DNA from: Porticoccus sp. W117
GTDB taxonomy: Bacteria > Pseudomonadota > Gammaproteobacteria > Pseudomonadales > Porticoccaceae
Length of the DNA stretch: 64,000 nucleotides
Direction of reading: 5' to 3'
Assembly (NCBI RefSeq): GCF_030341905.1
Contig: NZ_JATAAF010000012.1
Location: 17,406 to 81,405, forward strand
Positions 7,958 through 54,614 of the stretch are shown one piece after another (position 1 is the stretch's first letter; the number at the start of each line of letters is the position of its first letter). The notes beneath the pieces are model-generated. The model was given only the letters and a program-made list of their open reading frames with translations, did not search any database and was not told the DNA's origin. Position numbers and translations under genes: made by a program.

Positions 7958-8022
7958 AAATGCGCCCCACGCCCGCAATGGCCGGGGCGCCAACACAATA
8001 ATGTAGATAGGACTATCACATC

Positions 8023-10077
8023 ATGGCTTTCCCAAAGGTCAAAGCTCTCAGCGCTGCGTTGGCGCTTTTGGTTTCTCAAGCTGCATCGGCAGTGGGTTTA
8101 GGTGAGATCAAACTGAACTCCGCTCTCAATGAGCCGCTGAATGCGGAAATTGAACTGCTGAGTGTGGGGGATTTGGACGAATTGGAATTGTTCGTCAATC
8201 TCGCCAGCCGCAAGGACTTTGAACGTGCCGGTGTGCCTCGTGACTACTTTCTCAGTGGTTTGCGGTTTGAAGTTGACCTGTCCGGCTCGCGCCCCAAAGT
8301 CATTGTGAAATCCGAGAAGCCGGTGCGAGAGCCCTTCCTGGATTTTCTGGTGGAGATGCAGTGGCCCAGCGGTCGCCTGCTGCGCAACTACACCTTGCTG
8401 GTTGACCTGCCAGTCTACTCTGACGAAAAAGCCAAGCCCAAAGCGGTTGAGAGCAGTTCTTCCGGCAGCTCCAGTGCCAAGCCAGCCACTGCTCCCCGGC
8501 CGGCCCCAGCACCTCAGCCAGCGGCCAGTAGCAATCTGGAAGCCGGTGGCGATTACCAAGTGGCCCGTGGCGATACCTTGTGGGGCATCGCGAAACGCTC
8601 CCGTCCTCAAGGTGCCAGCATCCATCAGACCATGGTAGCCATTCACGAGTTAAACCCCCGTGCTTTTGTGCGTGGTGATATCAACCTGTTGAAAAGCGGT
8701 GAAATTCTGCGCCTGCCAGCGGGCTCACAAATCAACAGCAGCCACAGCGATGCAGTGGCAGACATCAGCCAGCAGACCCAAAGCGGTGCCCTGATCGATG
8801 CAGCAGACACACCGTCGCCGTCATCAAACGACCAACAGTCTTCCGATGGCCGCCTTAAACTGTCTGCGGCCACTGAGGATGCGGCCAGTGCGGAGGAAGA
8901 TTACTCAGTATCCGAATACGATGGCAGTGAGGCTGGTGGCGCTGGAAACAGCGAACGCCTTTCCAATGACTTGACCATCGCTCAGGAAGAACTGCTTCGC
9001 AAAGACCGGGAACTGGAAGAAGCCCGCGAGCGTATTGCGCTGCTTGAACAGCAGGTGGCCACCAACGACCGCATTGTAGAGATACAAAACAGCACTCTGG
9101 GAGAGGCGCAACAGGCGCAGGCCCAGAATCAACAAGCAGCGGCTGAAGCCGCACAACAAACACAAAAAACTGCCGAGGAAAGTGCAGAACAAGTACCCGC
9201 AGAGCCAGTGGCGGCAGAGTCTGAGCAGGGATTTTTGGCGCAGTACAAATACTACCTGATGGCGGGAATCGGCCTGTTGCTTGCCCTGTTGGTGGCTCTG
9301 GGTTTGCGTCGCAAAAAAGACGATGACGCCGATGAGTTTACCTTTGACGAGGCTCCGGAGCCGACCTTCGAGGAGCCGGAACCCGCTGCCGCCATTGCTG
9401 AGCTGAATGAAACCGAACCGGAAGAACAGGAGCCCGAACCTGCCGCGCTGGTATCTGAGCCGGAACCAGAGGAGGAGCCTCAGGAAGAGGTTGTCGATTT
9501 GTCTGATGAAGATCAGCTGTTCGACTTTGAAGAAGAGGATGAATCTCTGGAAGAGGATGAGCCGTCCGATAAAGAACAGGATGAAGAGTTGGACGAAATA
9601 CTCACCCGCTTTGATGAAGCGGATGAGGAAGCTGAACAAGACGCTGATGACGATCTGGACTTTGACGTTGAGCTGGATCTGGACGATGAGCCTCAGGACG
9701 AAGATGGCGAGACAGATGACAGTAGCGAAGAAGATTCTGCCGAAGATGAGCCTGAAGCTGTTGAGGAAGAAGCCGCAGATTCAGAAGACGCCGATGAGGC
9801 CGATGCTCAACAAGACGATGAGCCCGAGGAAGAGGTAGCAGAAGAGGCGACTGCCACGGAAGAAGAGAGTGAGCCTGAAGTGGTAGTGGAAGACGCCGAC
9901 GATGACTTCGATCTGGATATGGAAGGCGACGAAATCGGTACCAAGCTGGATTTGGCCAAAGCCTACAGCGATGTGGGTGATACCGATGGCGCTCGTGAAA
10001 TGCTCGAAGAAGTGATTGAAGAGGGCAGCGACGAGCAAAAAGCCGAGGCCAAAAAGCTGCTCGACGACTTGGAATAA
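8023..10077 (+). CDS. fimV: FimV-like peptidoglycan-binding protein (LysM domain, one TM segment, long acidic region, FimV C-terminal motif)
   Basis: Signal peptide, LysM (YQVARGDTLWGIAKR), TM helix (YYLMAGIGLLLALLVALGL). About 300 aa of D/E-rich low complexity. C-terminal LDLAKAYSDVGDTDGAREMLEEVI motif. Synteny with truA. Confidence 0.85.
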   Translation: MAFPKVKALSAALALLVSQAASAVGLGEIKLNSALNEPLNAEIELLSVGDLDELELFVNLASRKDFERAGVPRDYFLSGLRFEVDLSGSRPKVIVKSEKPVREPFLDFLVEMQWPSGRLLRNYTLLVDLPVYSDEKAKPKAVESSSSGSSSAKPATAPRPAPAPQPAASSNLEAGGDYQVARGDTLWGIAKRSRPQGASIHQTMVAIHELNPRAFVRGDINLLKSGEILRLPAGSQINSSHSDAVADISQQTQSGALIDAADTPSPSSNDQQSSDGRLKLSAATEDAASAEEDYSVSEYDGSEAGGAGNSERLSNDLTIAQEELLRKDRELEEARERIALLEQQVATNDRIVEIQNSTLGEAQQAQAQNQQAAAEAAQQTQKTAEESAEQVPAEPVAAESEQGFLAQYKYYLMAGIGLLLALLVALGLRRKKDDDADEFTFDEAPEPTFEEPEPAAAIAELNETEPEEQEPEPAALVSEPEPEEEPQEEVVDLSDEDQLFDFEEEDESLEEDEPSDKEQDEELDEILTRFDEADEEAEQDADDDLDFDVELDLDDEPQDEDGETDDSSEEDSAEDEPEAVEEEAADSEDADEADAQQDDEPEEEVAEEATATEEESEPEVVVEDADDDFDLDMEGDEIGTKLDLAKAYSDVGDTDGAREMLEEVIEEGSDEQKAEAKKLLDDLE

Positions 10078-10085
10078 TCCTGTGT

Positions 10086-10174
10086 CCGTCATCGCGAGCG
10101 CAGCGCGGCGATCCAGCGTCTTTGTTTTTAAATCACTAGATTGCCGCGTCGCCTGCAGCTCCTCGCAATGACGA
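10086..10174. repeat. REP-like palindromic element, family B copy 1 (cgtcatcgcgagcg...cgcaatgacg)
   Basis: Inverted repeat. Family B copies also at 34871, 35630 and 42790. Confidence 0.75.
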
Positions 10175-10184
10175 TGATTTCTAT

Positions 10185-11081
10185 ATGTCAGAAGCCCCCA
10201 AGGGGTATCAACGCAATATGCTGTTGAGCCCCGAAGACAAAATGCCAGAAGGCATGCAACGCATAGCTGCCGTCGTTGAATACGACGGCAGTGCTTTTTG
10301 TGGCTGGCAACGGCAGAGCCACAGCCCCAGCGTTCAGGCGGAAGTGGAACGGGCGCTGTCAAAAGTGGCAGCAGAACCCATTACTGTTGCCTGCGCTGGT
10401 CGCACAGATACTGGCGTCCACGGCACCAACCAGGTAATTCACTTCGATACCCTGGCACAAAGGGAAGCGCGCAACTGGATTCTCGGTGCCAACGCCAACC
10501 TGCCAGACAGTATCCGTGTACACTGGGCCTCGCCAGTTTCCCCACAGTTTCACGCCCGCTTTAGTGCAACCGCACGCACCTATCGCTATGTGATCAGCAA
10601 CCAGCCCTATCGACCTGCATTGGGTCACAGCGGTTTGACCTGGCAGCGCTTGCCGTTAGATGAAAAAGCCATGCAGCAGGGTGCTAACTACCTGCTAGGT
10701 GAACGGGATTTTTCCTCATTTCGTGGCGCCGGCTGTCAATCGAAAACCCCCAATCGCAACATGCATTATGTGGATGTATGGCGTCAGGGGGAACTGGTAA
10801 TCATCGAACTGCGTGCCAACGCTTTTGTATTGCATATGTGTCGCAATATTGCCGGAGCTTTGATAGCGGTTGGTGCCGGTGAAAAAAAACCGGAGTGGAT
10901 CGACGAGCTGATGGCGGTGCGGGATCGCAATCAGGCGGGCATTACCGCGCCCCCGCAGGGGTTGTATTTGGTGAATGTCAGTTATCCTGCCGAGTTTGAA
11001 TTTCCCCAATTGCCACCTGGCCCTCATTGTGTTGCTGAGCCATTGAGGCGGCTGCCTTGTGAGCACCGAATACCTTTATAG
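10185..11081 (+). CDS. truA: tRNA pseudouridine(38-40) synthase
   Basis: RIAAVVEYDGSAFCGWQRQ and RTDTGVHG catalytic Asp motif. The true start is possibly the internal ATG at 10254. Confidence 0.9.
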   Translation: MSEAPKGYQRNMLLSPEDKMPEGMQRIAAVVEYDGSAFCGWQRQSHSPSVQAEVERALSKVAAEPITVACAGRTDTGVHGTNQVIHFDTLAQREARNWILGANANLPDSIRVHWASPVSPQFHARFSATARTYRYVISNQPYRPALGHSGLTWQRLPLDEKAMQQGANYLLGERDFSSFRGAGCQSKTPNRNMHYVDVWRQGELVIIELRANAFVLHMCRNIAGALIAVGAGEKKPEWIDELMAVRDRNQAGITAPPQGLYLVNVSYPAEFEFPQLPPGPHCVAEPLRRLPCEHRIPL

Positions 11082-16599: not shown

Positions 16600-17151
16600 A
16601 TGAATTGGGCTGACTGGGCGATTATCGCTATTGTCGCACTCTCCGCGCTGATCAGTCTGGTGCGGGGCTTTGTTCGTGAGGCGCTTTCGCTGGCTGTGTG
16701 GGTGGCCGCTGTGATTATTGCCGCCAACTTCTACCAATCCCTTGCCAGCCAGTTTACCAACCTGATCGAAACCCCATCCCTGCAATTGATTGTTGCCTGG
16801 GTAGTACTGTTTTTGGCCACCTTGTTGGTGGGCATGCTGGTGACCTATGTTATCGGGCAACTGGTAAAGGCCACTGGTCTTAGTGGTACCGATCGGCTGA
16901 TTGGCTCACTATTTGGCATCGCCCGCGGTCTGGTGTTGGTGCTGATTGTTCTGGTGCTGGTGCCCAAAGCTTTGCCGGTGGATGAAGACCCCTGGTGGCA
17001 ACAGTCGCGCTTGATTCCTCAATTCCTCAAATTTGAACAGTGGGCCGCTGAAATGGGTGGTTCACTGTACGAATCTGGCAAGCAATTGCTCAGCCCTGAC
17101 CTCAACCCCAACCCTGAACAGCAAACTCAAACTTCTTTTCCAGGTAGCTAA
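16600..17151 (+). CDS. cvpA: colicin V production membrane protein
   Basis: 183 aa, four predicted TM helices. Conserved position before purF. Confidence 0.85.
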
Positions 17152-20715: not shown

Positions 20716-21048
20716 ATGAATTGCGAAGTAACAATAGACGGTTCGAATATACGTGACTGGGATTCATTTCATAATGAATTTCAAGAGAAAATGGGCTTCT
20801 TTGATGGCTACGGTAGAAACCTGGATGCATGGCTGGATTGCATGACTGATATATTTACAAGGGGGCAGTATGAAAGCCTTTGCAAGTTTAATTTAAATCA
20901 AGATGACTCCTTTACGATGAAGATAATAAATGGAGAGAAATGGATGTCTCAGAGCAAAGAAACATTGTTGGCATTCATGGACTGTTATGAACCGTTGCGT
21001 GAATCCAAAGATGGTCACTATGGGCTTAGTATTTCGCGGGGTATTTAA
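20716..21048 (+). CDS. barstar-family ribonuclease inhibitor (orphan immunity-like gene)
   Basis: IDGSNIRDWDSFHNEF...YGRNLDAWLDCMT aligns to barstar IRSISDLHQTL...YGENLDALWDCLT, including the D35/D39 equivalents. Noticeably AT-rich compared with neighbours. Confidence 0.75.
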   Translation: MNCEVTIDGSNIRDWDSFHNEFQEKMGFFDGYGRNLDAWLDCMTDIFTRGQYESLCKFNLNQDDSFTMKIINGEKWMSQSKETLLAFMDCYEPLRESKDGHYGLSISRGI

Positions 21049-22613: not shown

Positions 22614-23888
22614 CTAGCCAGGATAATCCCGCTTGGGAGCACCGGTATACAGCTGCCGGGGGCGGCCGATTTTGTAGGCGTTGCTGAGCATTTCGTTCCA
22701 GTGGGCGATCCAGCCCACGGTGCGGCCGGTGGCAAAAATAACGGTAAACATTTCCACCGGAATGCCCATGGCCTTGAGGATGATGCCAGAGTAGAAATCC
22801 ACGTTGGGGTACAGCTTCTTCTGGATAAAGTATTCGTCTTCCAGGGCGATTTGCTCCAGGCGCTTGGCGATTTTCAGCAGGGGGTCTTCCACGCCCAGGG
22901 CTTCCAGCACTTCGTCGCAGGTCTGCTTCATAATGGTGGCGCGGGGGTCGAAGTTTTTGTACACCCGGTGGCCGAAGCCCATCAGGCGGAACGGGTCGTT
23001 CTTGTCCTTGGCGCGGGCGACAAACTCGTCGATGCGGCTCTCATCGCCAATCTGTTCCAGCATGGTCAGTACCGCTTCGTTGGCACCACCGTGTGCTGGT
23101 CCCCACAGGGCGGCAATACCGGCGGCGATACAGGCGAACGGGTTGGCACCGGAGGAGCCTGCGAGGCGCACGGTGGAGGTGGAGGCGTTTTGCTCGTGGT
23201 CGGCGTGCAGCAGGAAGATGCGGTCCATAGCGCGGGCCAGGATGGGGTTCACTTCTTTGTGTTCACAGGGGGTGTTGAACATCATGTGAAGGAAGTTTTC
23301 CGAATAACTCAGGGAGTTGTCCGGGTAGATATAGGGCTGGCCGATGTAGTGTTTGTAACACATGGCTGCCAGGGTCGGCATTTTGGCGATCAGGCGGTGG
23401 GCGGAAATCATCCGGTGTTCCGGGTTAGAGATGTCCAGTGAGTCGTGATAGAAGCTGGACATGGCGCCAACGGAGCCGCACATAATGGCCATCGGGTGGG
23501 CGTCGTAACGGAAACCGTTAAGGAACAGTTCGATAGAGCGGCTCACCATGGTGTGGTAGGTGATGGTGTTGTAGAACTGCTTCTTTTCCTCTGCATCGGG
23601 CAGTTCGCCATTCAGCAGCAGGAAGCAGGTTTCCAAAAAGTCAGATTTTTCAGCCAACTGCTCGATAGGGTAACCCCGGTGCAGCAGAACCCCGTTGGCG
23701 CCGTCGATATAGGTGATTTTTGATTCGCAGGAGGCGGTGGCAGTAAAGCCGGGGTCGAAGGTAAACAGGTTGTTTGATGCCATCGGAGCAATGTTGACCA
23801 CGTCCTGGCCGGCGGTGCCACTGTATACGGGCAGCTCAATGGCTGCGTCGCTACCTTCAAGTGTGAGAAACGCTTTTCTGTCAGACAT
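22614..23888 (-). CDS. gltA: type II citrate synthase
   Basis: [34 protein letters not shown]-terminus and catalytic His/Asp motifs. 424 aa. Confidence 0.97.
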
Positions 23889-24166
23889 AGAAACTCCATT
23901 CGAACACCTATACCACTATCGGGATAGGCGTATGAGAAAATAACAAGCCAGAAATCGGGGAAACCCTTAAAAACTGGATGAAGAACCGTTGGGAAAGCTA
24001 TCGTTTGGCGGGATTTATGTCAACTCATATTGTTGTTTTGTAACTGTTTTACACGCTTGACGCCGACTTTTGGGTAGAGAACGAAACAAAAGTCTAAAAC
24101 CTGAGGTAGTGAAGGCGGGAGGAATTTGTAATGGCTCTGTAACGATCCTATAATCAGCCGGCTTTT

Positions 24167-24190
24167 GAAGGGGTTACGCCCCTTTTTATT
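24167..24190 (+). terminator. terminator-like hairpin (gaagggg ttacg cccctt + T-run) in the gltA-sdhA intergenic region
   Basis: 6-bp GC stem followed by tttttatt. Preceded by a GGAGG plus an ATG-GCT-CTG-TAA mini-ORF at 24131. Confidence 0.45.
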
Positions 24191-24305
24191 GATAACAAAA
24201 GAACTACTGCGGCACGCTTTGAATTTGCGCCAATCCATCTGGGTGCGAAGGTGCCAGACCAAATATTCTGCACAATTTGACAGCATACAAGGGGATACAT
24301 AGCCC

Positions 24306-26078
24306 ATGGCTGATATAAGAACGATTGAATTTGACGGTATTGTTGTAGGGGGTGGAGGTGCCGGCATGCGCGCAGCGCTGCAAATGGCACAATCCGGCTT
24401 TAATACTGCCGTGATCACCAAAGTATTTCCCACTCGTTCTCACACCGTATCCGCCCAGGGCGGCATTACCTGTTCCATTGCCAGTGCCGACCCCAACGAT
24501 GATTGGCGTTGGCACATGTACGATACAGTGAAAGGTTCTGACTATATCGGCGACCAGGACGCTATTGAGTACATGTGTCAGGTAGGCCCGGAAACGATTT
24601 TTGAATTGGAGCATATGGGCCTGCCGTTCTCCCGCACCGAAGAAGGCCGCATCTACCAGCGCCCCTTTGGTGGCCAGTCCAAAGAATTTGGTGAAGGCGG
24701 TCAGGCGGCCCGTACCTGCGCTGCCGCTGACCGTACCGGTCACGCGCTGCTGCACGCCCTGTACCAAAGCAATCTGAAAAATAATACGACGTTCCTCAAC
24801 GAGTGGTTTGCCGTTGACCTGGTGAAAAACAGCTCCGGTGCTGTAGTGGGCGTTATCGCCATCAACATCGAAGACGGCGAAGTGGTGTACGTGAAATCCA
24901 AAGCCACGGTATTTGCCACTGGCGGTGCTGGCCGTATCTACGCCTCCACCACCAATGCCCACATCAACACCGGTGACGGTATTGGTATGGCCTTGCGCGC
25001 TGGCTTCCCCATGCAGGACATGGAAATGTGGCAGTTCCACCCCACCGGCATTGCCGGTGCTGGCGTGCTGGTTACCGAAGGTTGCCGTGGTGAAGGTGGC
25101 TACCTGATCAACAAAGACGGCGAGCGCTTTATGGAGCGTTATGCCCCCAACGCCAAAGACCTGGCAGGTCGCGACGTAGTAGCCCGTTCTATGGTTCTGG
25201 AAATTCTCGACGGCCGTGGCTGTGGCGAGAATGGCGATCACGTGTACCTGAAGCTGGATCACCTGGGTGAGGAAGTTCTCAACAGCCGCCTGCCCGGCAT
25301 TATGGAACTGGCCAAAACCTTCGCCCACACCGACCCGGCCAAAGACCCGATTCCGGTAGTGCCTACCTGCCACTACATGATGGGTGGCATTCCCACCAAC
25401 GTGAATGGCCAGGCACTGACTCAGGATGAAGATGGCAATGACGTGGTCATCCCCGGCTTCTACGCCTGTGGTGAGGCGGCCTGTGTGTCTGTGCACGGTG
25501 CCAACCGCCTGGGCGGTAACTCACTGCTCGATCTGGTGGTATTTGGCCGTGCCTCTGGCTTGTTCATTGAGAAGCAGCTGCGCGAAGGCATTGAGCTGGA
25601 CGACGCCAGCGACGCCGACATTGAAGCGGCCATGGCGCGTCTCAATCGCGTTAACAACACCAACGATGGTGAAGGTGCTGCGGAGCTGCGCACCGAGCTG
25701 CAGAGCATCATGCAAAACCACTTCGGTGTATTCCGTCGCGGTGACTTTATGAAAGAAGGCATCGAGAAACTGGCCGACCTGCGCAAGCGCATCGAAAATG
25801 TTCGTCTGGATGACAAGAGCGCCGCCTTCAACACCGCTCGTATCGAAGCGCTGGAACTGCAAAACCTGCTGGAAGTGGCGGAAGCCACTGCAGTGGCGGC
25901 GGAAGAGCGTAAGGAATCCCGTGGCGCCCATGCCCGCGAGGATTTCCAGGAGCGCGATGACGAAAACTGGCTGTGCCACTCCTTGTACTTCCCGCAAGAC
26001 AAGCGAGTCGACAAACGCGATGTCAATTTCACGCCCAGCACCGTCGATACCTTCAAACCCAAAGCGCGTACTTATTAA
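24306..26078 (+). CDS. sdhA: succinate dehydrogenase flavoprotein subunit
   Basis: FAD motif [12 protein letters not shown], covalent-FAD His ([10 protein letters not shown]). High identity to E. coli SdhA over its whole length. Confidence 0.97.
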
Positions 26079-26093: not shown

Positions 26094-26798
26094 ATGTTGA
26101 ATGTTGAGATTTATCGCTACAACCCGGAAACGGACAGCGCTCCCTACATGAAGAGCTACCAGGTAGATACCAAGGGTCGTGACCTGATGGTGCTGGACGT
26201 GCTGGAATTGCTTAAAGCGCAGGACGCCAGCCTGGCCTACCGTCGTTCCTGTCGGGAAGGCGTATGCGGCTCTGATGGCATGAATATGAACGGCAAGAAC
26301 GGTTTGGCTTGCATCAAGCCATTGTCAGAAGTAGCTCCCAACGGCAAGCTGGTGCTGCGCCCACTGCCTGGCCTGCCGGTGATCCGCGACCTGGTTGTGG
26401 ATATGAGCCAGTTCTACGCCCAGTACAAGAAGGTGGAGCCCTACCTGCAGAACGACACGCCGGTGGAAGGCATCGAGCGCAAACAATCTCCGGAGGATCG
26501 CGAGAAGCTGGACGGCTTGTACGAATGTATCCTGTGCGCTTGCTGCTCCACGTCTTGCCCGTCTTTCTGGTGGAACCCGGACAAATTTATCGGCCCCGCT
26601 GGCCTGTTGCAGTCCTACCGTTTCCTGGCGGACAGTCGTGACGAGGCCACCGAAAAGCGCCTGGAAAATCTCAGCGACCCGTTTAGCGTGTTCCGCTGTC
26701 ATACCATCCAGAACTGTGTGGCGGTGTGTCCAAAAGGGCTGAACCCGACCAAGGCTATTGGCCATATCCGCCATATGCTGCTGTCCAGTAAAGGCTGA
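26094..26798 (+). CDS. sdhB: succinate dehydrogenase iron-sulfur subunit
   Basis: Three Cys clusters (CREGVCGSDGMNMNG, CILCACCSTSC, CHTIQNCVAVCPKG). Confidence 0.97.
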   Translation: MLNVEIYRYNPETDSAPYMKSYQVDTKGRDLMVLDVLELLKAQDASLAYRRSCREGVCGSDGMNMNGKNGLACIKPLSEVAPNGKLVLRPLPGLPVIRDLVVDMSQFYAQYKKVEPYLQNDTPVEGIERKQSPEDREKLDGLYECILCACCSTSCPSFWWNPDKFIGPAGLLQSYRFLADSRDEATEKRLENLSDPFSVFRCHTIQNCVAVCPKGLNPTKAIGHIRHMLLSSKG

Positions 26799-26905: not shown

Positions 26906-29737
26906 ATGCCAGAAAGCATCACCGAGCAGTTTATTCGCAGCAGCCATTTCTCCGGTGGCAACGCTGATTATGTAGAAGCGCTCTACGAAAACTACTTACA
27001 CGATCCAAATGGCGTGCCAGACGAATGGCGCGCCTTTTTTGATTCTCTACCTCGCGTCAATGGCGGCGGCCCGGATACTTCCCACGCCACCATCCAGCAG
27101 CACTTTGAATTGCTTGGACGACGCAAGGCGCGCAAAGGCCCGGCGCCCGGTTCCGGTGGCGTCAATATCGAGCACGAGCGCAAGCAGGTTAAAGTCCTGC
27201 AACTGATCAGTGCCTATCGCTCTCGCGGCCACCTCAAGGCAAAACTGGACCCTCTGGGTTTGGCGCAGCGCCCCGGTTCGCCGGATCTGGATTTGCACTT
27301 TCACGGCCTCAACAGTGCCGACCTGGATACTACTTTCCAAACCGGTTCACTGTTTATTGGCAAAGACGAAACGACCTTGCGGGAAATCGTTCAGTCACTG
27401 GAAGAAACCTACTGCGGCAGCGTTGGCCCGGAAGTGGGCTATATCACCGATCTGTCTGAGAAGCGCTGGCTTCAGCAACGGGTGGAGAGTGTGCATTCCC
27501 GCCCCAATTACGACAGCAGCGCCCGTATTGATGTGTTGCAGCGCCTGACCGCTGCCGAAGGTCTGGAAAAACACCTGGATTCCAAATACCCCGGCACCAA
27601 ACGCTTTGGTCTGGAAGGGGGCGAAAGCCTGATTCCTATGCTCGACGGCCTGATTCGTCGCGGCGGTGAATACGGTGCCAAGGAAATGGTATTGGGTATG
27701 GCTCACCGAGGCCGGCTTAATGTACTGGTGAACGTACTGGGTAAAAACCCGGCAGAGCTGTTTGAAGAGTTTGAAGGCAAAAAGCTGGTTAACACCTCCG
27801 GCGACGTGAAATACCACCAGGGCTTCTCGTCCAATGTGATGACCCCTGGTGGCGAAGTGCATTTGGCGCTGGCCTTTAATCCGTCGCACCTGGAGATTGC
27901 CTGCCCAGTGGTAGAGGGTTCCTGCCGCGCCCGGATGGATCGTCGTGACGACCCGGAGGGCAGTAAGGTAGTGCCCATCCTGATTCACGGTGATGCCGCA
28001 TTTGCCGGCCAGGGCGTGGTGATGGAAACCTTCCAGATGTCACAAACCCGGGCTTACAAAACTGGCGGCTCTATCCATATTGTGCTCAACAACCAGGTGG
28101 GCTTTACCACCAGCCGCAAAGAGGATGCTCGCTCTACCGAGTATTCCACTGAAATTGCCAAAATGGTTCAGGCTCCGATTATTCATGTGAATGGTGATGA
28201 CCCGGATGCGGTGATGTTTGCCACCATGTTGGCCATGGATTACCGCTACGAGTTCAAGAAAGACATCGTTCTCGACCTGGTGTGCTACCGCCGTCGCGGC
28301 CACAACGAAACCGATGAACCCTCGGCCACCCAGCCGTTGATGTACAAAAAAATCCGCAGCCACAAAACCACTCGTGCCCTGTACGCGGAGCAGTTGGTGA
28401 AGGAAGGGGTGATTTCCGATGCTCAGGGTACTCAGTTCCTCAATGACTACCGTTCGGCGTTGGATAATGGCGAAGACGTTACTCACAACCTGGTGCCAGA
28501 GCCCAAGGAAGTCATGCACTTCGATTGGAGCCCTTATCTGGGCCATGACTGGCTGGTGCCCGGCAATACCGGTTACGACCTGCACAAACTGCAGGATGTG
28601 GCCAAACGCATCAGCACCGTACCCGATGGTGTTGTGATTCAGCGCCAGGTGAACAAAATCTACGATGACCGCCGCAAAATGGCCGGCGGTGCGCTGCCGT
28701 TGAACTGGGGTATGGCGGAACTGCTGGCCTACGCCACGTTGCTGGAAGAGGGCTATCAGGTACGTATGACCGGTCAGGACATTGGCCGCGGCACCTTCTC
28801 TCACCGTCACGCCGTGGTGCACAACCAGAAAGACGGCGAAGCCTACGTACCACTGCAAAACCTGTCGGCGGGTCAGCCTCGCTTTGATATTTACGACTCC
28901 TACCTGTCGGAAGAAGCGGTACTGGCCTTTGAATACGGCTATGCCACTACCCACCCCAACGGCTTGACCATCTGGGAAGCGCAGTTCGGTGACTTTGCCA
29001 ACGGCGCCCAGGTAGTGATCGATCAGTTTATTACCAGTGGTGAGCACAAGTGGGGTCGTCTCTGCGGCCTGACCATGCTGTTGCCTCACGGTTACGAAGG
29101 GCAGGGGCCTGAGCACTCCTCAGCGCGCCTGGAACGCTACCTGCAATTGTGTGCAGAACACAATATTCAGGTGTGCATTCCCACCACCCCGGCCCAAGTA
29201 TTCCACATGTTGCGTCGTCAGGCGGTGCGTCCCATGCGTCGCCCATTGGTGGTGATGAGTCCGAAATGGATTCTGCGTCACAAGCTGGCTACCTCGTCTC
29301 TGGAAGACCTGGCCAACGGCAGCTTCCACTCGGTGATTGGTGACAATCAGGTAGACCCAGCCAAGGTAACCCGCTTGGTGATGTGCAGTGGCAAGGTGTA
29401 CTACCACCTGCTGGAAGAGCGTATTGAACGCGGCATCGAAGATGTTGCTCTGGTGCGTCTGGAGCAGCTGTACCCGTTCCCGGATGATGAGCTTTCAGCG
29501 GTGATCGACCAGTTTAAAAATCTGACATCTGTGGTCTGGTGTCAGGAAGAACCAGTGAACCAGGGTGCTTGGTACAGCAGTCAGCATCATATGCGCCGTA
29601 TCCTGCACAAATTCTACCCGGATGTTTACCTGGATTACGTGGGCCGCGAGGCCTCTGCTGCGCCAGCGGCGGGCTATATGTCCACTCACCTGGAAGAACA
29701 GCAACGCTTTGTACGTGCAGCGCTAACCACCTCCTAG
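26906..29737 (+). CDS. sucA: 2-oxoglutarate dehydrogenase E1 component
   Basis: 943 aa. ThDP enzyme with typical SucA N-terminus (FIRSSHFSGGNADYVEALYE). Confidence 0.96.
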   Translation: MPESITEQFIRSSHFSGGNADYVEALYENYLHDPNGVPDEWRAFFDSLPRVNGGGPDTSHATIQQHFELLGRRKARKGPAPGSGGVNIEHERKQVKVLQLISAYRSRGHLKAKLDPLGLAQRPGSPDLDLHFHGLNSADLDTTFQTGSLFIGKDETTLREIVQSLEETYCGSVGPEVGYITDLSEKRWLQQRVESVHSRPNYDSSARIDVLQRLTAAEGLEKHLDSKYPGTKRFGLEGGESLIPMLDGLIRRGGEYGAKEMVLGMAHRGRLNVLVNVLGKNPAELFEEFEGKKLVNTSGDVKYHQGFSSNVMTPGGEVHLALAFNPSHLEIACPVVEGSCRARMDRRDDPEGSKVVPILIHGDAAFAGQGVVMETFQMSQTRAYKTGGSIHIVLNNQVGFTTSRKEDARSTEYSTEIAKMVQAPIIHVNGDDPDAVMFATMLAMDYRYEFKKDIVLDLVCYRRRGHNETDEPSATQPLMYKKIRSHKTTRALYAEQLVKEGVISDAQGTQFLNDYRSALDNGEDVTHNLVPEPKEVMHFDWSPYLGHDWLVPGNTGYDLHKLQDVAKRISTVPDGVVIQRQVNKIYDDRRKMAGGALPLNWGMAELLAYATLLEEGYQVRMTGQDIGRGTFSHRHAVVHNQKDGEAYVPLQNLSAGQPRFDIYDSYLSEEAVLAFEYGYATTHPNGLTIWEAQFGDFANGAQVVIDQFITSGEHKWGRLCGLTMLLPHGYEGQGPEHSSARLERYLQLCAEHNIQVCIPTTPAQVFHMLRRQAVRPMRRPLVVMSPKWILRHKLATSSLEDLANGSFHSVIGDNQVDPAKVTRLVMCSGKVYYHLLEERIERGIEDVALVRLEQLYPFPDDELSAVIDQFKNLTSVVWCQEEPVNQGAWYSSQHHMRRILHKFYPDVYLDYVGREASAAPAAGYMSTHLEEQQRFVRAALTTS

Positions 29738-29786: not shown

Positions 29787-30983
29787 ATGTCAGTCGAAAT
29801 CAAGGCCCCGACATTTCCAGAATCAGTTCAAGAGGGTTCCATTGCCACCTGGCACAAGCAACCGGGCGAAGCGGTAAGCCGCGATGACCTGCTGGTGGAT
29901 ATCGAAACCGATAAAGTGGTGCTGGAAGTTGTCGCTCCTCAAGATGGTGTGTTGCAGGAAATCCTCAAAGGCGAGGGCGATACGGTTCTCAGTAACGAGG
30001 TGATTGCCCGTATTGAGGCTGGCGCAGCCGCCGCTGCCAGTGCCGCACCGGCTGCAGACGCTGCACCTCAGGCGGAAGCGCCTGCCGCTGATGGCGAGAA
30101 GCCGGTTGCCCCAGCTGCTCGCAAATTGGCAGAAGAACGCGGTATCGACCCGCAACAAGTTACTGGTACCGGCAAGAATGGCCTGGTAACCAAAGAAGAC
30201 GTGGTGGCTCACAAGGGTGCTGCCGCCCCAGCTGCCCCAGCTGCTCCCGCTGCTGCAGAGCCGGCAGTCATCCCCGGTGAACGGGTTGAAAAACGTGTGC
30301 CCATGAACCGTATGCGCGCCCGTATTGCCGAGCGCCTGCTGGACGTCACCCAGAGCACTGCCATGCTGACCACTTTTAACGAGGTGGATATGCACCGGGT
30401 GATGGATCTGCGCGCCCAGTTCAAAGACGCCTTCATAAAAGCCCACGATGGCACCAAGCTGGGCTTTATGGGCTTTTTTGTGCGCGCCGCGGTAGAGGCT
30501 CTGAAACGCTTCCCGTCAGTCAACGCTTCTATCGATGGCAAAGACATCGTTTACCACGGTTATCAGGATGTGAGTGTTGCAGTGTCCACTGAACGCGGCC
30601 TGGTGGTACCCGTATTGCGCGATGCAGACCAAATGAGCATTGCCAACATCGAAGCCAAAATTGCCGAATTGGGTGGCAAAGCTCGCGATGGCAAACTGAC
30701 TATTGATGAAATGACTGGTGGCACCTTCACCATCACTAATGGCGGTGTGTTCGGTTCGCTGCTGTCTACACCGATTATCAACTCACCGCAGACCGCCATT
30801 CTGGGCATGCACAGCATTCAGCAACGCCCTGTAGCTGAGAACGGTGAAGTGGTGATTCGTCCGATGATGTACCTGGCTCTGTCCTACGATCACCGCCTGA
30901 TCGACGGCAAAGAAGCGGTGCAATTCCTGGTAGCGATTAAAGAAATGATTGAGAATCCGGCCAAGATCCTTTTGGAGATTTAA
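29787..30983 (+). CDS. sucB: dihydrolipoyllysine-residue succinyltransferase (E2o)
   Basis: Lipoyl domain ([10 protein letters not shown]), Ala/Pro linker, E3-binding domain, catalytic DHRLIDG. Confidence 0.96.
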
Positions 30984-31052: not shown

Positions 31053-32498
<1,446 letters not shown>

Positions 32499-32545: not shown

Positions 32546-32710
32546 GTCGCACGCTTCACGTCGCACGTCGCACGCTTTTATCCGAACCCATGTAGGTCGG
32601 CCTTTAGGCCGTCAAAATTCGACACTACGTAGTGCCTTTATTGACGGGCTAAAGCCCGACCTACAGAGTGCTTGGTTTTAGCGTGCGACGTCAGACGTGC
32701 GACGTGCGAC
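32546..32710. repeat. REP-like composite element, family A copy 3
   Basis: gtcgcacgtcgcacgc ... tgtaggtcggcctttaggccgtc ... gacgggctaaagcccgacctaca ... ttttagcgtgcgacgtcagacgtgcgacg. Confidence 0.8.
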
Positions 32711-32739
32711 AAAAAATATCCATCCAGAGATTAGAAGTT

Positions 32740-33906
32740 ATGAACTTACACGAATATCAAGGGAAGCAGCTGTTCGCCGAATACGGCCTGCCGGTTTCTG
32801 CTGGCATCGCCTGCGAAACCGCATCTGAAGCGGTAGCGGCTGCAAAAGAAATTGGTGGCGACACCTGGGTTGTTAAAGCCCAGGTGCACGCTGGTGGCCG
32901 CGGTAAAGCGGGTGGCGTAAAGCTGGTAAATAACTACGAAGACGTAGAGGCATTTGCCAAGCAATGGCTGGGCAAAAACCTGGTGACTTACCAGACAGAC
33001 GCCAACGGCCAACCTGTGAGTCGTATCCTGGTGGAAACTTGCACCGATATCGCCAACGAGCTGTACCTGGGTGCAGTTGTTGACCGCTCCACTCGCCGTA
33101 TTGTTTTCATGGCCTCTACCGAAGGCGGTGTTGAAATCGAGAAGGTGGCGGAAGAAACCCCTGAGAAAATCCTCAAAGCGGAAGTTGACCCGCTGGTAGG
33201 TGCTCAGCCTTACCAAGGCCGCGACCTGGCGTTCCGCCTGGGTCTGGAAGGTGTTCAGGTGAAGCAATTCACCCAAATCTTCCTGGGCCTGGCAAAAATG
33301 TTCCAGGAAAAAGACCTGGCGCTGCTGGAAATTAACCCGCTGGTAATCACTGACGAAGGCAACCTGCACTGCCTGGACGCCAAAGTCGTCATCGACTCCA
33401 ACGCGCTGTATCGTCAAAAAGCCGTTAAGGAAATGCACGATCCCTCTCAGGAAGACGCTCGCGAAGCGCACGCTGCCCAGTGGGACCTGAACTACGTGGC
33501 TTTGGACGGCAACATCGGTTGCATGGTGAACGGTGCTGGTCTGGCCATGGGCACCATGGACATCGTTAAGCTGCACGGCGGCCAGCCCGCCAACTTCCTC
33601 GACGTGGGTGGTGGCGCTACCAAAGAGCGCGTGATTGAAGCCTTCAAGATCATTCTCTCCGACGACAGTGTGGAAGCGGTACTGATCAATATCTTCGGTG
33701 GCATCGTGCGCTGTGACCTGATTGCCGAAGGTGTAATCGGTGCGGTTGAAGAAGTGGGCGTACAAGTGCCTGTGGTGGTTCGCCTGGAAGGCAACAACGC
33801 CGAAGTGGGTGCCAAGGTATTGGCCGACAGTGGCCTCAACATCATCGCCGCGACCAGCCTGACCGATGCTGCACAGCAAGCGGTAAAAGCCGCTGCTGGC
33901 AACTGA
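32740..33906 (+). CDS. sucC: succinyl-CoA ligase (ADP-forming) beta subunit
   Basis: Start [19 protein letters not shown] at 32740. The ORF-track start 32668 is an in-frame extension through the REP. Confidence 0.96.
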
Positions 33907-33921: not shown

Positions 33922-34794
33922 ATGAGTATTTTGATTAACAAAGACACCAAAGTAATCTGCCAGGGCTTTACTGGCGCCCAGGGCACTTTCCACTCCGAGC
34001 AAGCCATTGAATACGGCACAAATATGGTGGGTGGTGTAACCCCCGGCAAAGGTGGCCAACAACACTTGGGCCTGCCCGTATTTAACACCGTTGCCGATGC
34101 GGTTGCAGCAACTGGCGCGGAAGCGTCCGTTATCTACGTGCCCGCGCCGTTCTGTAAGGACTCCATTCTGGAAGCGGCCAACGCCGGCATCCAGCTGATC
34201 GTGTGCATTACCGAAGGCATCCCGACTCTGGATATGCTGGAAGCCAAGGTTAAGTGTGACGAACTGGGTGCACGCCTGATCGGCCCCAACTGCCCCGGCG
34301 TGATCACTCCCGGCGAGTGCAAGATCGGCATTATGCCCGGTCATATTCACCAGCCCGGTAAAGTGGGCATCGTTTCCCGCTCCGGTACTCTGACCTACGA
34401 AGCGGTTAAACAAACCACTGACTTCGGTTTTGGCCAGTCCACTTGTGTGGGCATTGGTGGTGACCCGATTCCCGGCTCCAACTTTATCGACATTCTGGAA
34501 ATGTTTGAAAAAGACCCAGCCACCGAAGCCATCGTCATGATCGGTGAAATCGGCGGTACTGCTGAGGAAGAAGCGGCGGCTTACATTAAAGAGAATGTCA
34601 GCAAGCCCGTGGTTTCTTACATCGCTGGTGTTACCGCACCTCCCGGAAAGCGCATGGGCCACGCCGGGGCCATCATCTCCGGTGGTAAAGGCACTGCCGA
34701 CGAGAAGTTTGCCGCTCTTCAGGATGCCGGTGTAAAAACCGTTCGCAGCCTGGCGGATATTGGCGAAGGACTGAAGGAAATTACCGGTTGGTAA
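33922..34794 (+). CDS. sucD: succinyl-CoA ligase alpha subunit
   Basis: [28 protein letters not shown]. Phosphohistidine loop GHAGAII. Confidence 0.96.
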
Positions 34795-35863: not shown

Positions 35864-36508
35864 TTAACCCGCATCCGGCTGATTTTCTGGCAATGCTTTT
35901 TCAAACGCTTCCAGCGTATTGCAGTGCTCCCAAATGGATTTCAGGGTTGGGTGTTGTTCCATATCCACACTAAACCGCAATGCGTTGTAAATTTGCGGAA
36001 TCAGTACCACATCTGCCAAGGTCACCTGACCGCCAAATAAAAATTTGCCGTTGCTGCCATATTTATTTGCCTGTATTTCCAGTGCAGAAAAGCCTTTGTT
36101 TATCCAATTGTGAATCCACTGCACTTTTTGTTCTTCGCTGGCCCCCAGCTCACCGGTGATGTGTTTCAGCACTCGCAGGTTACAGATGGGATGAATATCG
36201 CAGGCGATATCGTTGGCCAGGGCGAGCACCTGGGCGCGCGCGGCGGTGTCTATAGGAAACAGGGAAGGCTGCGGGAATTTATTCTCGATGTAATCGAGAA
36301 TGGCCATGGACTGGTTTAACACCAGCTCACCATCCACCAGTGTTGGTACCAGTTGCGCCGGGTTCATGGCGGTGTAGTTGTCACTGAATTGCTGACCGCC
36401 GTCTTTCACCAGATGCACAGACTCTTGATCGTAGTCCACACCTTTCAGGTTAAGGGCGATGCGGCAGCGATAAGCGGCGGAGGAGCGCCAGTAGCCGTAG
36501 AGTTTCAT
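35864..36508 (-). CDS. maiA: maleylacetoacetate isomerase (zeta-class GST)
   Basis: Start MKLYGYWRSSAAYRCRIALNLKG at 36508. The longer track ORF runs into REP A4. Confidence 0.9.
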   Translation of the reverse strand: MKLYGYWRSSAAYRCRIALNLKGVDYDQESVHLVKDGGQQFSDNYTAMNPAQLVPTLVDGELVLNQSMAILDYIENKFPQPSLFPIDTAARAQVLALANDIACDIHPICNLRVLKHITGELGASEEQKVQWIHNWINKGFSALEIQANKYGSNGKFLFGGQVTLADVVLIPQIYNALRFSVDMEQHPTLKSIWEHCNTLEAFEKALPENQPDAG

Positions 36509-36580
36509 GTTTGTGTCCTGTTGTTTGGTGCCACTAAGACAATATAGATGAGTTGGTGACAAAACTATTCTTAACAACAG

Positions 36581-36744
36581 GTCACACGTCGCACGTCGCA
36601 CGTCGCACGCTTTGGCCAGTACCCTGTAGGTCGGCCTTCAGGCCGTCAAAGTCTGCACTACGTAGCGCGAGTCCTGACGGGCTAAAGCCCGACCTACAAA
36701 GTGCTTGGTTTTAGCGTGCGACGTGCGACGTCAGACGTGCGACC
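36581..36744. repeat. REP-like composite element, family A copy 4
   Basis: Triple gtcgcacgtcgcacg head, central tgtaggtcggccttcaggccgtc / gacgggctaaagcccgacctaca, and a mirrored tail. Confidence 0.8.
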
Positions 36745-36803
36745 AAATCAATTACAAAAAAGCCCCGCACAAGCAGGGCTTTCCTTGCTAACTAACGAAG
36801 CAC

Positions 36804-38117
36804 TTACACCAACGCTGGCAGCACAGTGCCAACCACTTCGCCAAAACCAATACGCACCGCACCATCGCGCTCACAGTAGCCGCGCATAATCACGCTGTCG
36901 CCGTCGTTCAGGAAGGTGCGTTGCTCGCCGTTGGGCAGTGTGATGGCTTGTTTGCCACCGCGGCTTAGTTCCAGCAGGGAGCCTGCTTCTTCGTGCTCCG
37001 GGCCGGATTGGGTGCCGGAGCCCAGCAGGTCGCCGGGCTGCATGGCGCAGCCATTCACCGTGTGGTGGGCCACCATTTGTGCCACGGTCCAGTAGCTGTG
37101 TTTAAAGCTGGATTCCGACAATTTGGCAGGTGCTTCGCCAGCGTTACGCATTTGTTCGGTTTCGATCAGGCATTCCAGCTGAATGTCCATGCTGCCGTTT
37201 TCATTATTGAAGTCACTGGTCAAGTAGGGCAGTGGCTGCGGATCGCTCTCCGGGCGGGTAAATGCGCTGCGGAATGGCGCCAGAGCTTCGGTGGTGATGA
37301 TCCACGGGGAAACGGTAGAGGCAAAGTTCTTAGCCAGGAACGGCCCCAGGGGTTGGTATTCCCAGGCTTGCAGGTCGCGGGCAGACCAGTCGTTGAAAAG
37401 GCACAGGCCGAACACGTGGTCTTCGGCGTTTTCAATATCCACTCGCTCGCCCAAGGCGTTGCCTTCGCCGATGTAGATGCCCATTTCCAGTTCGTAGTCC
37501 ATGCGCTTGCAGGGGCCGAAGCTGGGTTCGGCGGCGTCCGGCGCTTTGGTTTGACCGACCGGGCGGGGGAAGCTCTGGCCGGATACGTCAACGGTAGAGG
37601 CACGGCCGTGGTAGCCGATGGGTACCCACTTGTAGTTGGGCAGCAGGGGGTTGTCCGGGCGGAACAGAGAGCCTACCGCAGTGGCGTGGTGGATGGAGGT
37701 GTAGAAGTCGGTGTAATCACCAATCACGCAGGGCAGGTCGTATTCCACCTCGGCCATGGCAACCAGGCATTTTTCCACCTCGGCCTGCTGTTCAGAGCCA
37801 GTGCGCAGAGCGCGGGATAGCGCCAGGCGCAGAGCGGAGTTGGCGTCTTTGCCCATGCTCATCAGCATATTGAGGATAGGTTCACCGGCGGCTTCACAGG
37901 CTTCCTGAGCGGCATCGTCAAGGATGTCGGCAGCGGCCAGCGCTTGCATATCGATTACCTGGTCACCGATGGCAACGCCACCGCGGAATTCTTCGTCACT
38001 GCCGGCGCGGCGGAATACCGAAAACGGCAGATTCTGGATGGGGAAGTCGCTGCCTTGGGCTGATTCGACCCAACTGGTGAGGGCGGGGTCGTGGGTTTCG
38101 TTTAACAGAGTGGTCAT
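36804..38117 (-). CDS. fahA: fumarylacetoacetase
   Basis: 437 aa. N-terminal Fah domain (FPIQNLPFSVFRR) and FAH catalytic fold. Sits between hmgA and maiA. Confidence 0.9.
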   Translation of the reverse strand: MTTLLNETHDPALTSWVESAQGSDFPIQNLPFSVFRRAGSDEEFRGGVAIGDQVIDMQALAAADILDDAAQEACEAAGEPILNMLMSMGKDANSALRLALSRALRTGSEQQAEVEKCLVAMAEVEYDLPCVIGDYTDFYTSIHHATAVGSLFRPDNPLLPNYKWVPIGYHGRASTVDVSGQSFPRPVGQTKAPDAAEPSFGPCKRMDYELEMGIYIGEGNALGERVDIENAEDHVFGLCLFNDWSARDLQAWEYQPLGPFLAKNFASTVSPWIITTEALAPFRSAFTRPESDPQPLPYLTSDFNNENGSMDIQLECLIETEQMRNAGEAPAKLSESSFKHSYWTVAQMVAHHTVNGCAMQPGDLLGSGTQSGPEHEEAGSLLELSRGGKQAITLPNGEQRTFLNDGDSVIMRGYCERDGAVRIGFGEVVGTVLPALV

Positions 38118-38145
38118 TGTGTATTCTCGATTATTGTCATTCTGA

Positions 38146-38208
38146 GCGCAGCGAAGAATCTCTTTGCATGAGTTAGCTGTGAGATCCTTCGCTGCGCTCA
38201 GGATGACA
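38146..38208. repeat. REP-like palindromic element, family C copy 2
   Basis: gtcattctgagcgcagcgaagaatctc ... gatccttcgctgcgctcaggatgac. Confidence 0.7.
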
Positions 38209-38217
38209 TGTTGTCAG

Positions 38218-39525
38218 TTATGGCTCGCCAGTAAAGTGCTTATTCAGCCCGTTCCAGCAATCCAAATAATCCTGCTGCCGCTGTTCGCTTTCCAGTGCGT
38301 ATTTGGTGGGCTGTATCACGTAGCGGGACTCGAACATAAAGGCCATTGTAGCCTCTTGTTTTTCCGGCAGCAGTTCGCAGTTGCTGGCTTTTTCGAATAC
38401 TGCTGCTTCCGGGCCGTGGGGCGACATGCAGTTGTGCAGGCTGGAACCGCCGGGCACAAAGCCTTCTTCCTTGGCGTCGTACACGCCGTAAATCAGGCCC
38501 ATGTATTCGCTCATGATATTGCGATGGTACCAGGGGGGGCGGAAGGTGTTTTCGCCTACCATCCAGCGGGGCGGGAAGATGACGAAGTCCAGATTGGCCA
38601 CACCTTCCGTATCCGAGGGCGACGACAGCACGGTAAAGATGGACGGATCCGGGTGGTCGTAGCTGATGGTGCCCATGGTGTTAAAGCGTTCCAGGTCGTA
38701 TTTGTACGGCGCGGAATTGCCCACCCAGGCCACTACATCCAACGGGGAGTGGTCGATGTCGCAGGTAAATAGATTGCCGCCGAATTTGCACGCCAGCTGG
38801 AAATTGCCTTCCCGGTCTTCGTAGGCAGCGACCGGGTATTTGAAGTCCCGGTCGTTGGCGTAGCCATCGGAGCCCACCGGGCCGCGCTCTGGCAACACCA
38901 TGGGGGCGCCGTAGTTTTCGCAGAGGTAGCCGCGGGCTTGTTCGTCCAGCAGTTCAACGCGGAATTTGATACCCCGGGGAATCACAGCAATTTCACCGGC
39001 TTTAATAGCCAAGATACCGCATTCGGTGTGCAGCGCCAGGGCGCCCATTTGTGGCACAAACAGCAGCTCGCCATCGGCGTTATAGAAGTAGCGGTCTTCC
39101 ATGGAGCGGTTGATGCGGTAGTGGTGAATGCCAATACCCGCTTGCGCGCCCAGGTCACCGTTGGCGGCCATGGTTACCAGGCCATCCACAAAGTCGGTGG
39201 GCTCTGCGGGAACCGGCAGCGGGTTCCAGCGGTACATGGTGGGCGGCGTCACCACTTCAGTAATAGGCGCGCTGCGCACCAGCCCCTGGTCGATCTGGCG
39301 ATAGTCGCCTTGGGCTACGGATGGGCGAATGCGGTAGAACCAGGTGCGGCGGTTTTGATGGCGCGGCGCGGTAAAGGCAGTGCTGGTGAATTTTTCAGCG
39401 TACAGGCCGTAGGCCACTTTCTGCGGCGAAAACCTGCCTTGGGGCAGTGCACCGGGCAGAGCTTCGGTTTCGTGTTCGTTGTTAAAACCGGAGAGGTATT
39501 GTAGGTCGTCGTATTTGTTTGGCAT
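38218..39525 (-). CDS. hmgA: homogentisate 1,2-dioxygenase
   Basis: [29 protein letters not shown]-terminus. The start MPNKYDD at 39525 has an AGGA RBS. The ORF-track start 39570 is an extension into REP E3. Confidence 0.92.
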
Positions 39526-39569
39526 ACGAGGATTCCTTGTTGTTTCAAGGGTGCGCCCAGCGGCGCGCA

Positions 39570-39597
39570 TGGATCCCCGCCTGCGCGGGGATGACGG
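39570..39597. repeat. REP-like element, family E copy 3 (single hairpin ggatccccgcctgcgcggggatgacg)
   Basis: Half-element identical to the second hairpin of E1/E2. Confidence 0.65.
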
Positions 39598-39609
39598 ACG
39601 TATTAATTG

Positions 39610-40689: not shown

Positions 40690-40804
40690 GTGCGGGCCTC
40701 TGGGTAATTCACTGGTGATATGAGAAAGCCGGGATTTTCTCAAAATGGGCTTTTCTCTGCCTAGTAAAGAGGCCCTGAAAACGGGCTTGATAAGTTTTGA
40801 ATTT

Positions 40805-40822
40805 TGTAAATATAAATTTACG
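40805..40822. promoter_or_regulatory. strong TyrR box (TGTAAA-N6-TTTACg) upstream of hpd and downstream of phhR
   Basis: tgtaaatataaatttacg read directly. Matches the TGTAAA-N6-TTTACA consensus at 11 of 12 positions. Confidence 0.7.
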
Positions 40823-40839
40823 GACGACTCTGGAAAGGC

Positions 40840-42363: not shown

Positions 42364-42407
42364 AAAGGTAATCAGTAGGTGGGTTTGCTTGGATTGTAAC
42401 GATTGGT

Positions 42408-42758
42408 TTACGGCAGGGCCAGCTCATCTGTGCGCGCTGCCAGAATAAAATCATTGCGGTGCAGGCCGCGGATGGTGTGAGTCCACCAGCTCACGGTGAC
42501 TTTGCCCCATTCCACCAAAAGGACGGGGTGGTGATTGACGCTTTCTGCCACTTCGCCAATCTGATTGGCAAAATTCATTGCGTCGCGAAAGTTGCTGAAC
42601 GTAAATGTTCGTTGTAATTGCTTAATGCCATTGATATCGACGATTTGCCAGTCTGGAAGCTGAGTGAGGAGAGTCGCCGATTCTGAATCGCTAACCTGGG
42701 GGGAGCCTGGCCGGCAGGCTTCACAGGTTTCTTGTGCCAGTGACATGGTGGCCTCCAT
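42408..42758 (-). CDS. phhB: pterin-4a-carbinolamine dehydratase
   Basis: PCD/DCoH fold motif (EVAESVNHHPVLLVEWGKVTVSWWTH). 116 aa. Confidence 0.88.
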   Translation of the reverse strand: MEATMSLAQETCEACRPGSPQVSDSESATLLTQLPDWQIVDINGIKQLQRTFTFSNFRDAMNFANQIGEVAESVNHHPVLLVEWGKVTVSWWTHTIRGLHRNDFILAARTDELALP

Positions 42759-53782: not shown

Positions 53783-53912
53783 GGTGTTTAGGCCGGTTAT
53801 CAAATTGGTACACAACACATGAAGCATGCTTGTGCCAGGCCGATAATCAGAATCGGCTCCGCTAATTTGAATAACAGTTCCCAAACCTTGTTGTGACAGA
53901 CCGCTTATTGCA

Positions 53913-54600: not shown

Positions 54601-54614
54601 ACTGGTCGAGTCCG

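Follow-up and report, generated by a model that had tools for sequence, protein, structure and literature searches.

The region of interest lies in a window of 64 kb (the whole stretch of Porticoccus sp. W117 DNA that was analysed) and comprises the citrate synthase gene gltA and, divergent from it, a cluster of TCA cycle genes in the order sdhA, sdhB, sucA, sucB, lpdA, sucC and sucD (Table 1). The initial annotation, made from the sequence alone, had named these genes and described sdhA as following gltA after about 420 bp; Pfam matched each of the genes, and the gap was measured at exactly 417 bp. Both the FAD-binding and the C-terminal domains were matched in the SdhA translation, in which the RSHT motif was also found; the protein is 100% identical to the SdhA that NCBI lists for Porticoccus sp. 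W117. The order sucA-sucB-lpdA-sucC-sucD was identical in every relative compared. The longest open reading frame of sucC starts with GTG and codes for 412 aa, with the ATP-grasp domain beginning at residue 26, and the relatives' proteins have 388–389 aa; translation therefore probably begins some 24 codons after the GTG.

Table 1. Features of the gltA/sdh-suc region and of other loci in the Porticoccus sp. W117 window (positions are those of the window).
Feature	Position	Strand	Description
Barstar ORF	20716-21048	+	110 aa; Barstar (barnase inhibitor) domain, E 9.8e-15
gltA	22614-23888	-	citrate synthase, 424 aa; PF00285, E 2e-141
gltA-sdhA gap	23889-24305		417 bp
gltA promoter (putative)	23995-24023	-	TTGACA (24023-24018), 17 nt, TAGCTT (24000-23995); hexamers read from the sequence
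GGGAGG	24117-24122	+	includes GGAGG at 24118-24122
sdh promoter (predicted)	24126-24154	+	TTGTAA-N17-TATAAT; 10/12 consensus match; orthologous to relatives' sdhC promoter
Mini-ORF	24131-24142	+	ATG-GCT-CTG-TAA; inside the 17-nt promoter spacer
sdhA 5'UTR (predicted)	24155-24305	+	about 145 nt, mostly unconserved; ribosome-binding site AAGGGGA at 24289-24295
Terminator-like hairpin and T-run	24167-24190	+	stem-loop 24167-24185, 8-bp stem, 3-nt loop; T-run to 24190
sdhA	24306-26078	+	flavoprotein, 590 aa; PF00890 2.8e-120, PF02910 1.6e-46
sdhB	26094-26798	+	iron-sulfur protein, 234 aa; PF13085 and 4Fe-4S domains; E. coli-type
sucA	26906-29737	+	Pfam match
sucB	29787-30983	+	Pfam match
lpdA	31062-32498	+	Pfam match
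sucC	32668-33906	+	Pfam match
sucD	33922-34794	+	Pfam match
Homogentisate pathway block	35864-42758	-	complete; just downstream of the TCA cluster
TusBCD/TusE-like ORFs	42913-44264	-	four small adjoining ORFs
Five tRNA genes	53708-55127	-	Met-CAT, Lys-TTT, Gln-TTG, His-GTG, Asn-GTT

The membrane anchor genes sdhC and sdhD are missing from this otherwise canonical cluster, as had been claimed from the open reading frames. The gap is too small to hold both anchors and contains no ORF longer than 45 aa on its plus strand. When the 64-kb window was searched by tblastn with SdhC and SdhD of two relatives, no match was obtained (best E-value 0.83), and the same was true of profile HMMs built from 133 SdhC and 143 SdhD sequences and run with filters off against all six-frame segments of at least 30 aa (best E-value 1.3), which scored the positive controls L006 and L097 at 1e-46 to 1e-58. 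No SdhC/SdhD-like reading frame is thus present in any of the six frames, and neither the 23 kb upstream nor the 38 kb downstream of the locus contains a copy of either gene. Sdh_cyt coding sequence was likewise absent from 17.7 kb of Porticoccus sp. GXU_MW_L64 and from the metagenomic contigs of the clade described below. In a hydropathy screen of the ORFs of 70–260 aa in the 64 kb, the sole small ORF with several transmembrane segments in a plausible coding frame (16600–17151) was CvpA-like, and its counterpart in GXU_MW_L64 carries the Colicin_V (CvpA) family. An ORF pair at 43505–44264 was considered, on account of its size, as a candidate for the anchor genes and rejected, its translations reading as TusBCD/DsrEFH-like. 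The four small ORFs that adjoin one another in this part of the window resemble, as judged from their translations, a TusBCD/TusE (DsrEFH/DsrC-like) sulfur-relay set.

The junction lacking sdhCD is common to five independent assemblies, namely W117, Porticoccus sp. GXU_MW_L64 (L001; SdhA 97% identical to that of W117, gap of 449 bp), an ENA metagenome contig (L008; SdhA 92% identical, gap of 502 bp) and two Logan contigs from different runs (L091 and L092; SdhA 92% identical, gap of 481 bp). In every other relative examined (L097, L006/L007, L093, L095/L096, L009/L010, L002/L003, L094 and Microbulbifer L004/L005), gltA is followed by sdhC (124 aa), sdhD (122 aa) and sdhA; the SdhA proteins of these canonical relatives are 86–91.5% identical, and in L093 the 3' end of sdhD abuts sdhA. 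Neighbour-joining trees of SdhA and SdhB, calculated with or without SucA (its first 378 residues), grouped the taxa without sdhCD as monophyletic (94–97% bootstrap) and placed the sdhCDAB-bearing L097 as their sister (91–96% bootstrap). Since the taxa without sdhCD are monophyletic and have a sister that bears sdhCDAB, one loss of sdhCD on the stem of the clade is the most economical reading. A census of genome and metagenome collections by way of SdhD gave 160 sdhD-bearing loci, in 154 of which sdhA stands immediately after sdhD; five loci were too short to tell and one was frameshifted. A literature search for Porticoccus succinate dehydrogenase or anchor-less sdhAB gave nothing specific, and no report of such an arrangement in Cellvibrionales or Porticoccus was retrieved. 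On the L008 contig, which is named '..._2x_l' and has several broken frames, a frameshift interrupts sdhB close to the 3' end and sucA lies in fragments (7791–11041); these breaks look like assembly errors rather than pseudogenes.

Judged by its sequence, the gap is the ancestral gltA–sdhC divergent-promoter region, in which sdhA now occupies the position of sdhC. The gaps of the clade (417–502 bp) fall within the range of the relatives' gltA–sdhC spacers (308–647 bp), and the hexamers and 17-nt spacing of the sdh promoter are kept in W117, L001, L008 and L092, with a distance to sdhA of about 150–190 nt. The same promoter is found upstream of sdhC in five outgroups (L006, L009, L002, L095 and L005), with a -35 hexamer varying to TTGTGT. 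A consensus scan found one promoter-like site in the gap, with 1.1 expected in shuffled sequences; among the small features of the gap, conservation backs the promoter only. On the gltA side, TTGTCAA and GGAAAnCTAT blocks are kept in all clade members and outgroups, and we infer that this conserved island is the gltA promoter. Its hexamers were read by eye from a site that the consensus scan did not report, and its equivalents in the outgroups have the form TTGACA-16/17-TATAGT or TAAGTT. The gltA-proximal 190 bp of the gap (within 23889–24125) are more than 90% identical between W117 and GXU_MW_L64, the sdhA 5'UTR being far less conserved, and a block CTGGAT..AAC..GGAAAGCTATCGTTTG in this part of the gap is common even to L006. 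Besides the putative gltA promoter, the conserved stretch could contain the binding site of a regulator.

A trace of the deleted genes was found in L092: the last 40 nt ahead of sdhA (...ATCG-TATTCTG-GGGGAA...) correspond to the sdhD 3' end of L097, L095 and L009, with a score of 13 (null mean 2.7) that none of 500 shuffles reached. The right edge of the deletion therefore lies inside the end of sdhD. The GGGGA of the sdhD Trp-Gly-Ile codons persists as the ribosome-binding site of sdhA. In W117 itself, what may be an eroded remnant of the 3' end of sdhD (ATATTCTG..AATTTGA, 24268–24288) was not significant, its score being reached by 107 of 500 shuffles. Local alignment of the UTR interiors of the clade with the whole sdhC–sdhD region of the relatives gave no significant similarity, as is expected of non-coding DNA at a dS above 1, so that the left edge of the deletion can be placed only approximately.

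The catalytic subunits are strongly constrained. Between W117 and GXU_MW_L64, dN/dS was 0.023 for sdhA (dS 0.66) and 0.027 for sdhB (dS 0.92), lower than for the comparison genes gltA (0.052) and sucA (0.042), and across the deeper split to L092 the values for sdhA and sdhB were 0.04–0.05 (dS 1.2–1.6; the selection analysis was run without L008 sdhB). Because dN/dS stays low across both splits, strong purifying selection must have acted on the catalytic dimer ever since the loss of sdhCD, and no rate acceleration was seen on the SdhAB stem branch of the clade. The best solved relative of W117 SdhB is chain B of the E. coli enzyme (1NEK, E-value 6.6e-113). In W117 and GXU_MW_L64, the 2Fe-2S, 4Fe-4S and 3Fe-4S motifs with their cluster ligands and the quinone-site Pro, Trp and His (E. 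coli P160, W164 and H207; CPSFWW and FRCH kept) are intact, and the C-terminal membrane-facing helix of SdhB is nearly unchanged. By these signs SdhA and SdhB should still constitute a working enzyme. The residue equivalent to H207 is His in W117, GXU_MW_L64 and all outgroups and is replaced by Gln (FRCQG) in L092 (3641–4351) and L008 (7791–8552). In other organisms, changes at this His are associated with altered behaviour of the quinone site and towards carboxin.

Compared with known systems, the W117 locus is a derivative of the classical gltA/sdhCDAB-sucABCD cluster. It shares with the type C cluster of E. coli the divergent gltA, the succession of sdhA and sdhB followed by sucAB and sucCD, the intergenic sigma-70 promoter and, as seen above for chain B, the type of its SdhB. 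It differs in that sdhC and sdhD are lacking, so that the old sdhC promoter and UTR abut sdhA, and in that lpdA is inserted after sucB and ahead of sucC, a position it has in every Cellvibrionales relative compared. SdhA and SdhB thus have the features of a type C complex II, and the operon-level feature, two PF01127 heme-b anchors upstream of sdhA, is missing from the W117 window. In E. coli, one promoter upstream of sdhC drives an operon mRNA of about 10 kb, and in enterobacteria sdhC is subject to control by small RNAs (PMC6393394). W117 has no counterpart of the stretch of sdhC mRNA on which RyhB, Spot42 and RybB act in E. coli. The canonical loci of Porticoccaceae and Cellvibrionales (L097, L006, L009, L002 and Microbulbifer L005) have orthologous gltA, promoter, sdhA, sdhB and sucA onward and differ from W117 in keeping sdhC and sdhD, the latter ending 4–5 nt before sdhA. 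The type E SdhABE/MFR enzymes of Wolinella and Campylobacter are encoded by sdhA and sdhB without heme-b anchor genes of the sdhC/sdhD type (PMC2680327). The W117 locus resembles them in this respect. The type E enzymes, however, form a separate lineage of SdhA and SdhB, and the gene of their anchor, SdhE, is adjacent. An assignment of the locus to type E was rejected, because its neighbours are gltA and sucA, no SdhE gene is adjacent and SdhB is closest to that of E. coli type C. In some reduced genomes, such as those of Rickettsiales, the sdh gene sets are unlinked, with catalytic and anchor genes that lie apart and contribute to one enzyme. Porticoccus differs from these in being a free-living marine heterotroph, and no unlinked anchor genes were located for W117 in the searches described below.

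Anchor genes were sought outside the window through SdhD. When SdhD of L006, the nearest outgroup, was compared with a database of 5.8 billion proteins, no protein named as W117 or GXU_MW_L64 was among the at least 120 matches listed, down to 62% identity, while the SdhA proteins of both strains are present under their names in the same database. Since SdhD of L097 and L006 are 81% identical, a vertically inherited SdhD of the clade would be expected at about 75–80% identity. The unnamed matches of 75–81% identity that could be placed were in canonical gltA/sdhCDAB contexts. A scan of a genome collection with L006 SdhD yielded 80 Cellvibrionales loci, none from W117 or GXU_MW_L64; this negative carries little weight, as the scan used exact 8-residue patterns, which may miss SdhD proteins of 60–75% identity and did miss known Porticoccus sdhD genes. 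A metagenome scan with L097 SdhD returned nothing above 66% identity, neither close relatives nor a stand-alone sdhCD pair, and its loci entered only the adjacency census given above. Some database proteins of 208–248 aa (P0121–P0124; L094:8001–8627) are presented as fused SdhC–SdhD. They were rejected as genuine fusions; each looks like neighbouring sdhC and sdhD genes read through by way of a frameshift, from E. coli-like sources (presumably the case for P0122 and P0124) and from metagenomic long-read contigs, P0121 being from a metagenome contig.

Taken as a whole, these data are best explained by an ancient, clean deletion of sdhCD, re-use of the sdhC promoter and supply of the anchor from elsewhere, to which we assign a probability of about 0.58. 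Its parts differ in strength. The deletion is almost certain from the comparison of the loci. The ancestor of a small Porticoccus subclade (W117, GXU_MW_L64 and the three metagenomic contigs) would have lost a segment of about 0.7 kb in a single event, reaching from approximately the start of sdhC to within the last 40 nt or so of sdhD. Re-use of the promoter is highly probable, in that the former sdhC promoter and a 5'UTR of about 145 nt now directly precede sdhA. By analogy with E. coli, transcription from this promoter would cover sdhAB and continue into sucAB-lpdA-sucCD; the terminator-like hairpin just downstream of the predicted start in W117 counts against such read-through. It is likely that an anchor, of whatever origin, is encoded in trans. 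The selection on SdhAB and the intact quinone-site residues of SdhB lead us to expect a membrane anchor elsewhere, and SdhAB would accordingly still be attached to a quinone-reducing anchor encoded outside the 64-kb window. An SdhC/SdhD pair that is divergent or was acquired horizontally is a likelier source of this anchor than the native genes at a new location.

It is unlikely that the clade has no SdhC/SdhD-type anchor at all, with SdhAB either acting as a soluble or peripheral dimer on another acceptor or bound to a non-homologous membrane partner. Such a state would agree with the lack of Sdh_cyt sequence in all three sources searched (W117, 64 kb; GXU_MW_L64, 17.7 kb; and the metagenomic contigs) and with the lack of a W117- or GXU-named SdhD both among the at least 120 matches listed and in the genome scan; moreover, Gln at the SdhB H207 site in two metagenomic members hints at a changed quinone site. 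The strong selection on sdhAB nonetheless shows that the enzyme does something. However, W117 and GXU_MW_L64 keep all quinone-site and membrane-facing motifs of SdhB, the SdhAB stem branch shows no acceleration, and both SdhD searches are limited in sensitivity and in the matches listed. In addition, it is established biochemistry that succinate:quinone activity is required by aerobic heterotrophs whose suc cluster is complete. It is likewise unlikely that a free-living aerobic marine Porticoccus clade has maintained a complex II without an SdhC/SdhD-type anchor over a dS above 1; the route would in that case be a non-homologous membrane partner or an anchor-independent path for the electrons, and the SdhB His-to-Gln replacement in two members would be its trace.

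Alternatively, the native sdhCD pair could have moved elsewhere in the chromosome, the operon being split and otherwise unchanged, which is distinctly improbable. Relocation is the simplest way of keeping a working complex II and fits both the unchanged interface residues of SdhB and the fact that the genome scan was limited by its patterns. An inherited SdhD of about 75–80% identity would nevertheless rank among the top ten matches in the protein database, and its lack among those listed, together with the canonical contexts of the 75–81% matches and the lack of a copy within 23 kb upstream or 38 kb downstream, disfavours a simple native relocation.

The initial annotation had also suggested that a small transcript or leader occupies the place of sdhCD in the gap. 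The GGAGG (as part of GGGAGG), the ATG-GCT-CTG-TAA and the hairpin with its T-run are present in W117 as it described them, and the two codon changes in the L001 mini-ORF are synonymous. The proposal itself did not hold up, and it is very improbable that a Shine-Dalgarno sequence, a 3-codon ORF and an intrinsic terminator form a small transcript, leader peptide or attenuator regulating sdhA. The ATG of the mini-ORF overlaps the last base of the -35 hexamer and the whole ORF lies in the promoter spacer. Two of the four aligned clade members, L008 (ATCAAAACTCAAG) and L092 (ATCGACTATCAAC), have no such ATG, and the closest strain, L001, lacks the upstream GGAGG. Such a reading frame is evidently a chance reading within the promoter spacer rather than a gene. 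The predicted sdhA 5'UTR opens with the hairpin, about 6 nt past the predicted transcription start. The first 45 nt of the W117 UTR, which include it, fold with -12.2 kcal/mol (z = -2.66), and the fold of the UTR as a whole is unremarkable compared with shuffled sequences (z = -0.88). The hairpin sequence is W117-specific, being kept neither in L001, despite its 97% identical SdhA, nor in L008 or L092; the other UTRs of the clade open with different, unremarkable hairpins. A scan found one terminator-like site, with 1.0 expected in shuffled sequences. The covariance models of Rfam 15 run against positions 23700–24500 gave only chance-level matches (E-value of at least 0.15, far below the gathering scores), and an Rfam search of the whole window at the gathering scores returned five tRNAs and nothing else. 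The hairpin is thus at most a strain-specific 5' stem-loop, and both it and the mini-ORF are by-products of the promoter and UTR sequence with no demonstrated role.

Finally, the unusual layout might by itself suggest an assembly artefact or decaying sdhAB pseudogenes, a negligible possibility: a misassembly at the junction is excluded because the same junction occurs in five assemblies from different projects, and sdhA and sdhB are intact, with dN/dS of 0.02–0.05.

The gltA/sdhCDAB-suc cluster is among the most stable gene arrangements in Gammaproteobacteria, as the position of sdhA right after sdhD in the census illustrates. Loss of the anchor genes alone, ancient, scar-free and clade-wide, with the catalytic genes still under selection, is a natural experiment in the genetic uncoupling of complex II. 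If the anchor is indeed supplied in trans, the locus would show a free-living bacterium in which an operon was split and its promoter re-used, and would warn annotators against scoring complex II as incomplete from locus context alone. Absence of any SdhCD-type anchor, if true, would mean a new wiring of succinate oxidation to the respiratory chain. The case also illustrates that what looks like a Shine-Dalgarno, mini-ORF or terminator motif between genes may belong to a promoter and UTR and have been taken out of its context.

Several other loci in the window were noted. The Barstar ORF lies between a Polyketide_cyc2 gene and a GGDEF gene; the syntenic position in GXU_MW_L64 has no called gene, and no barnase-like partner was noticed nearby. 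Long ORFs are few in the segment that contains the tRNA genes. The homogentisate pathway block includes genes coding for a GST-like protein (maleylacetoacetate isomerase-type), fumarylacetoacetase, homogentisate 1,2-dioxygenase and 4-hydroxyphenylpyruvate dioxygenase, and, as read from the translations, extends further to ORFs for a TyrR-like sigma-54 activator and a protein resembling pterin-4a-carbinolamine dehydratase.
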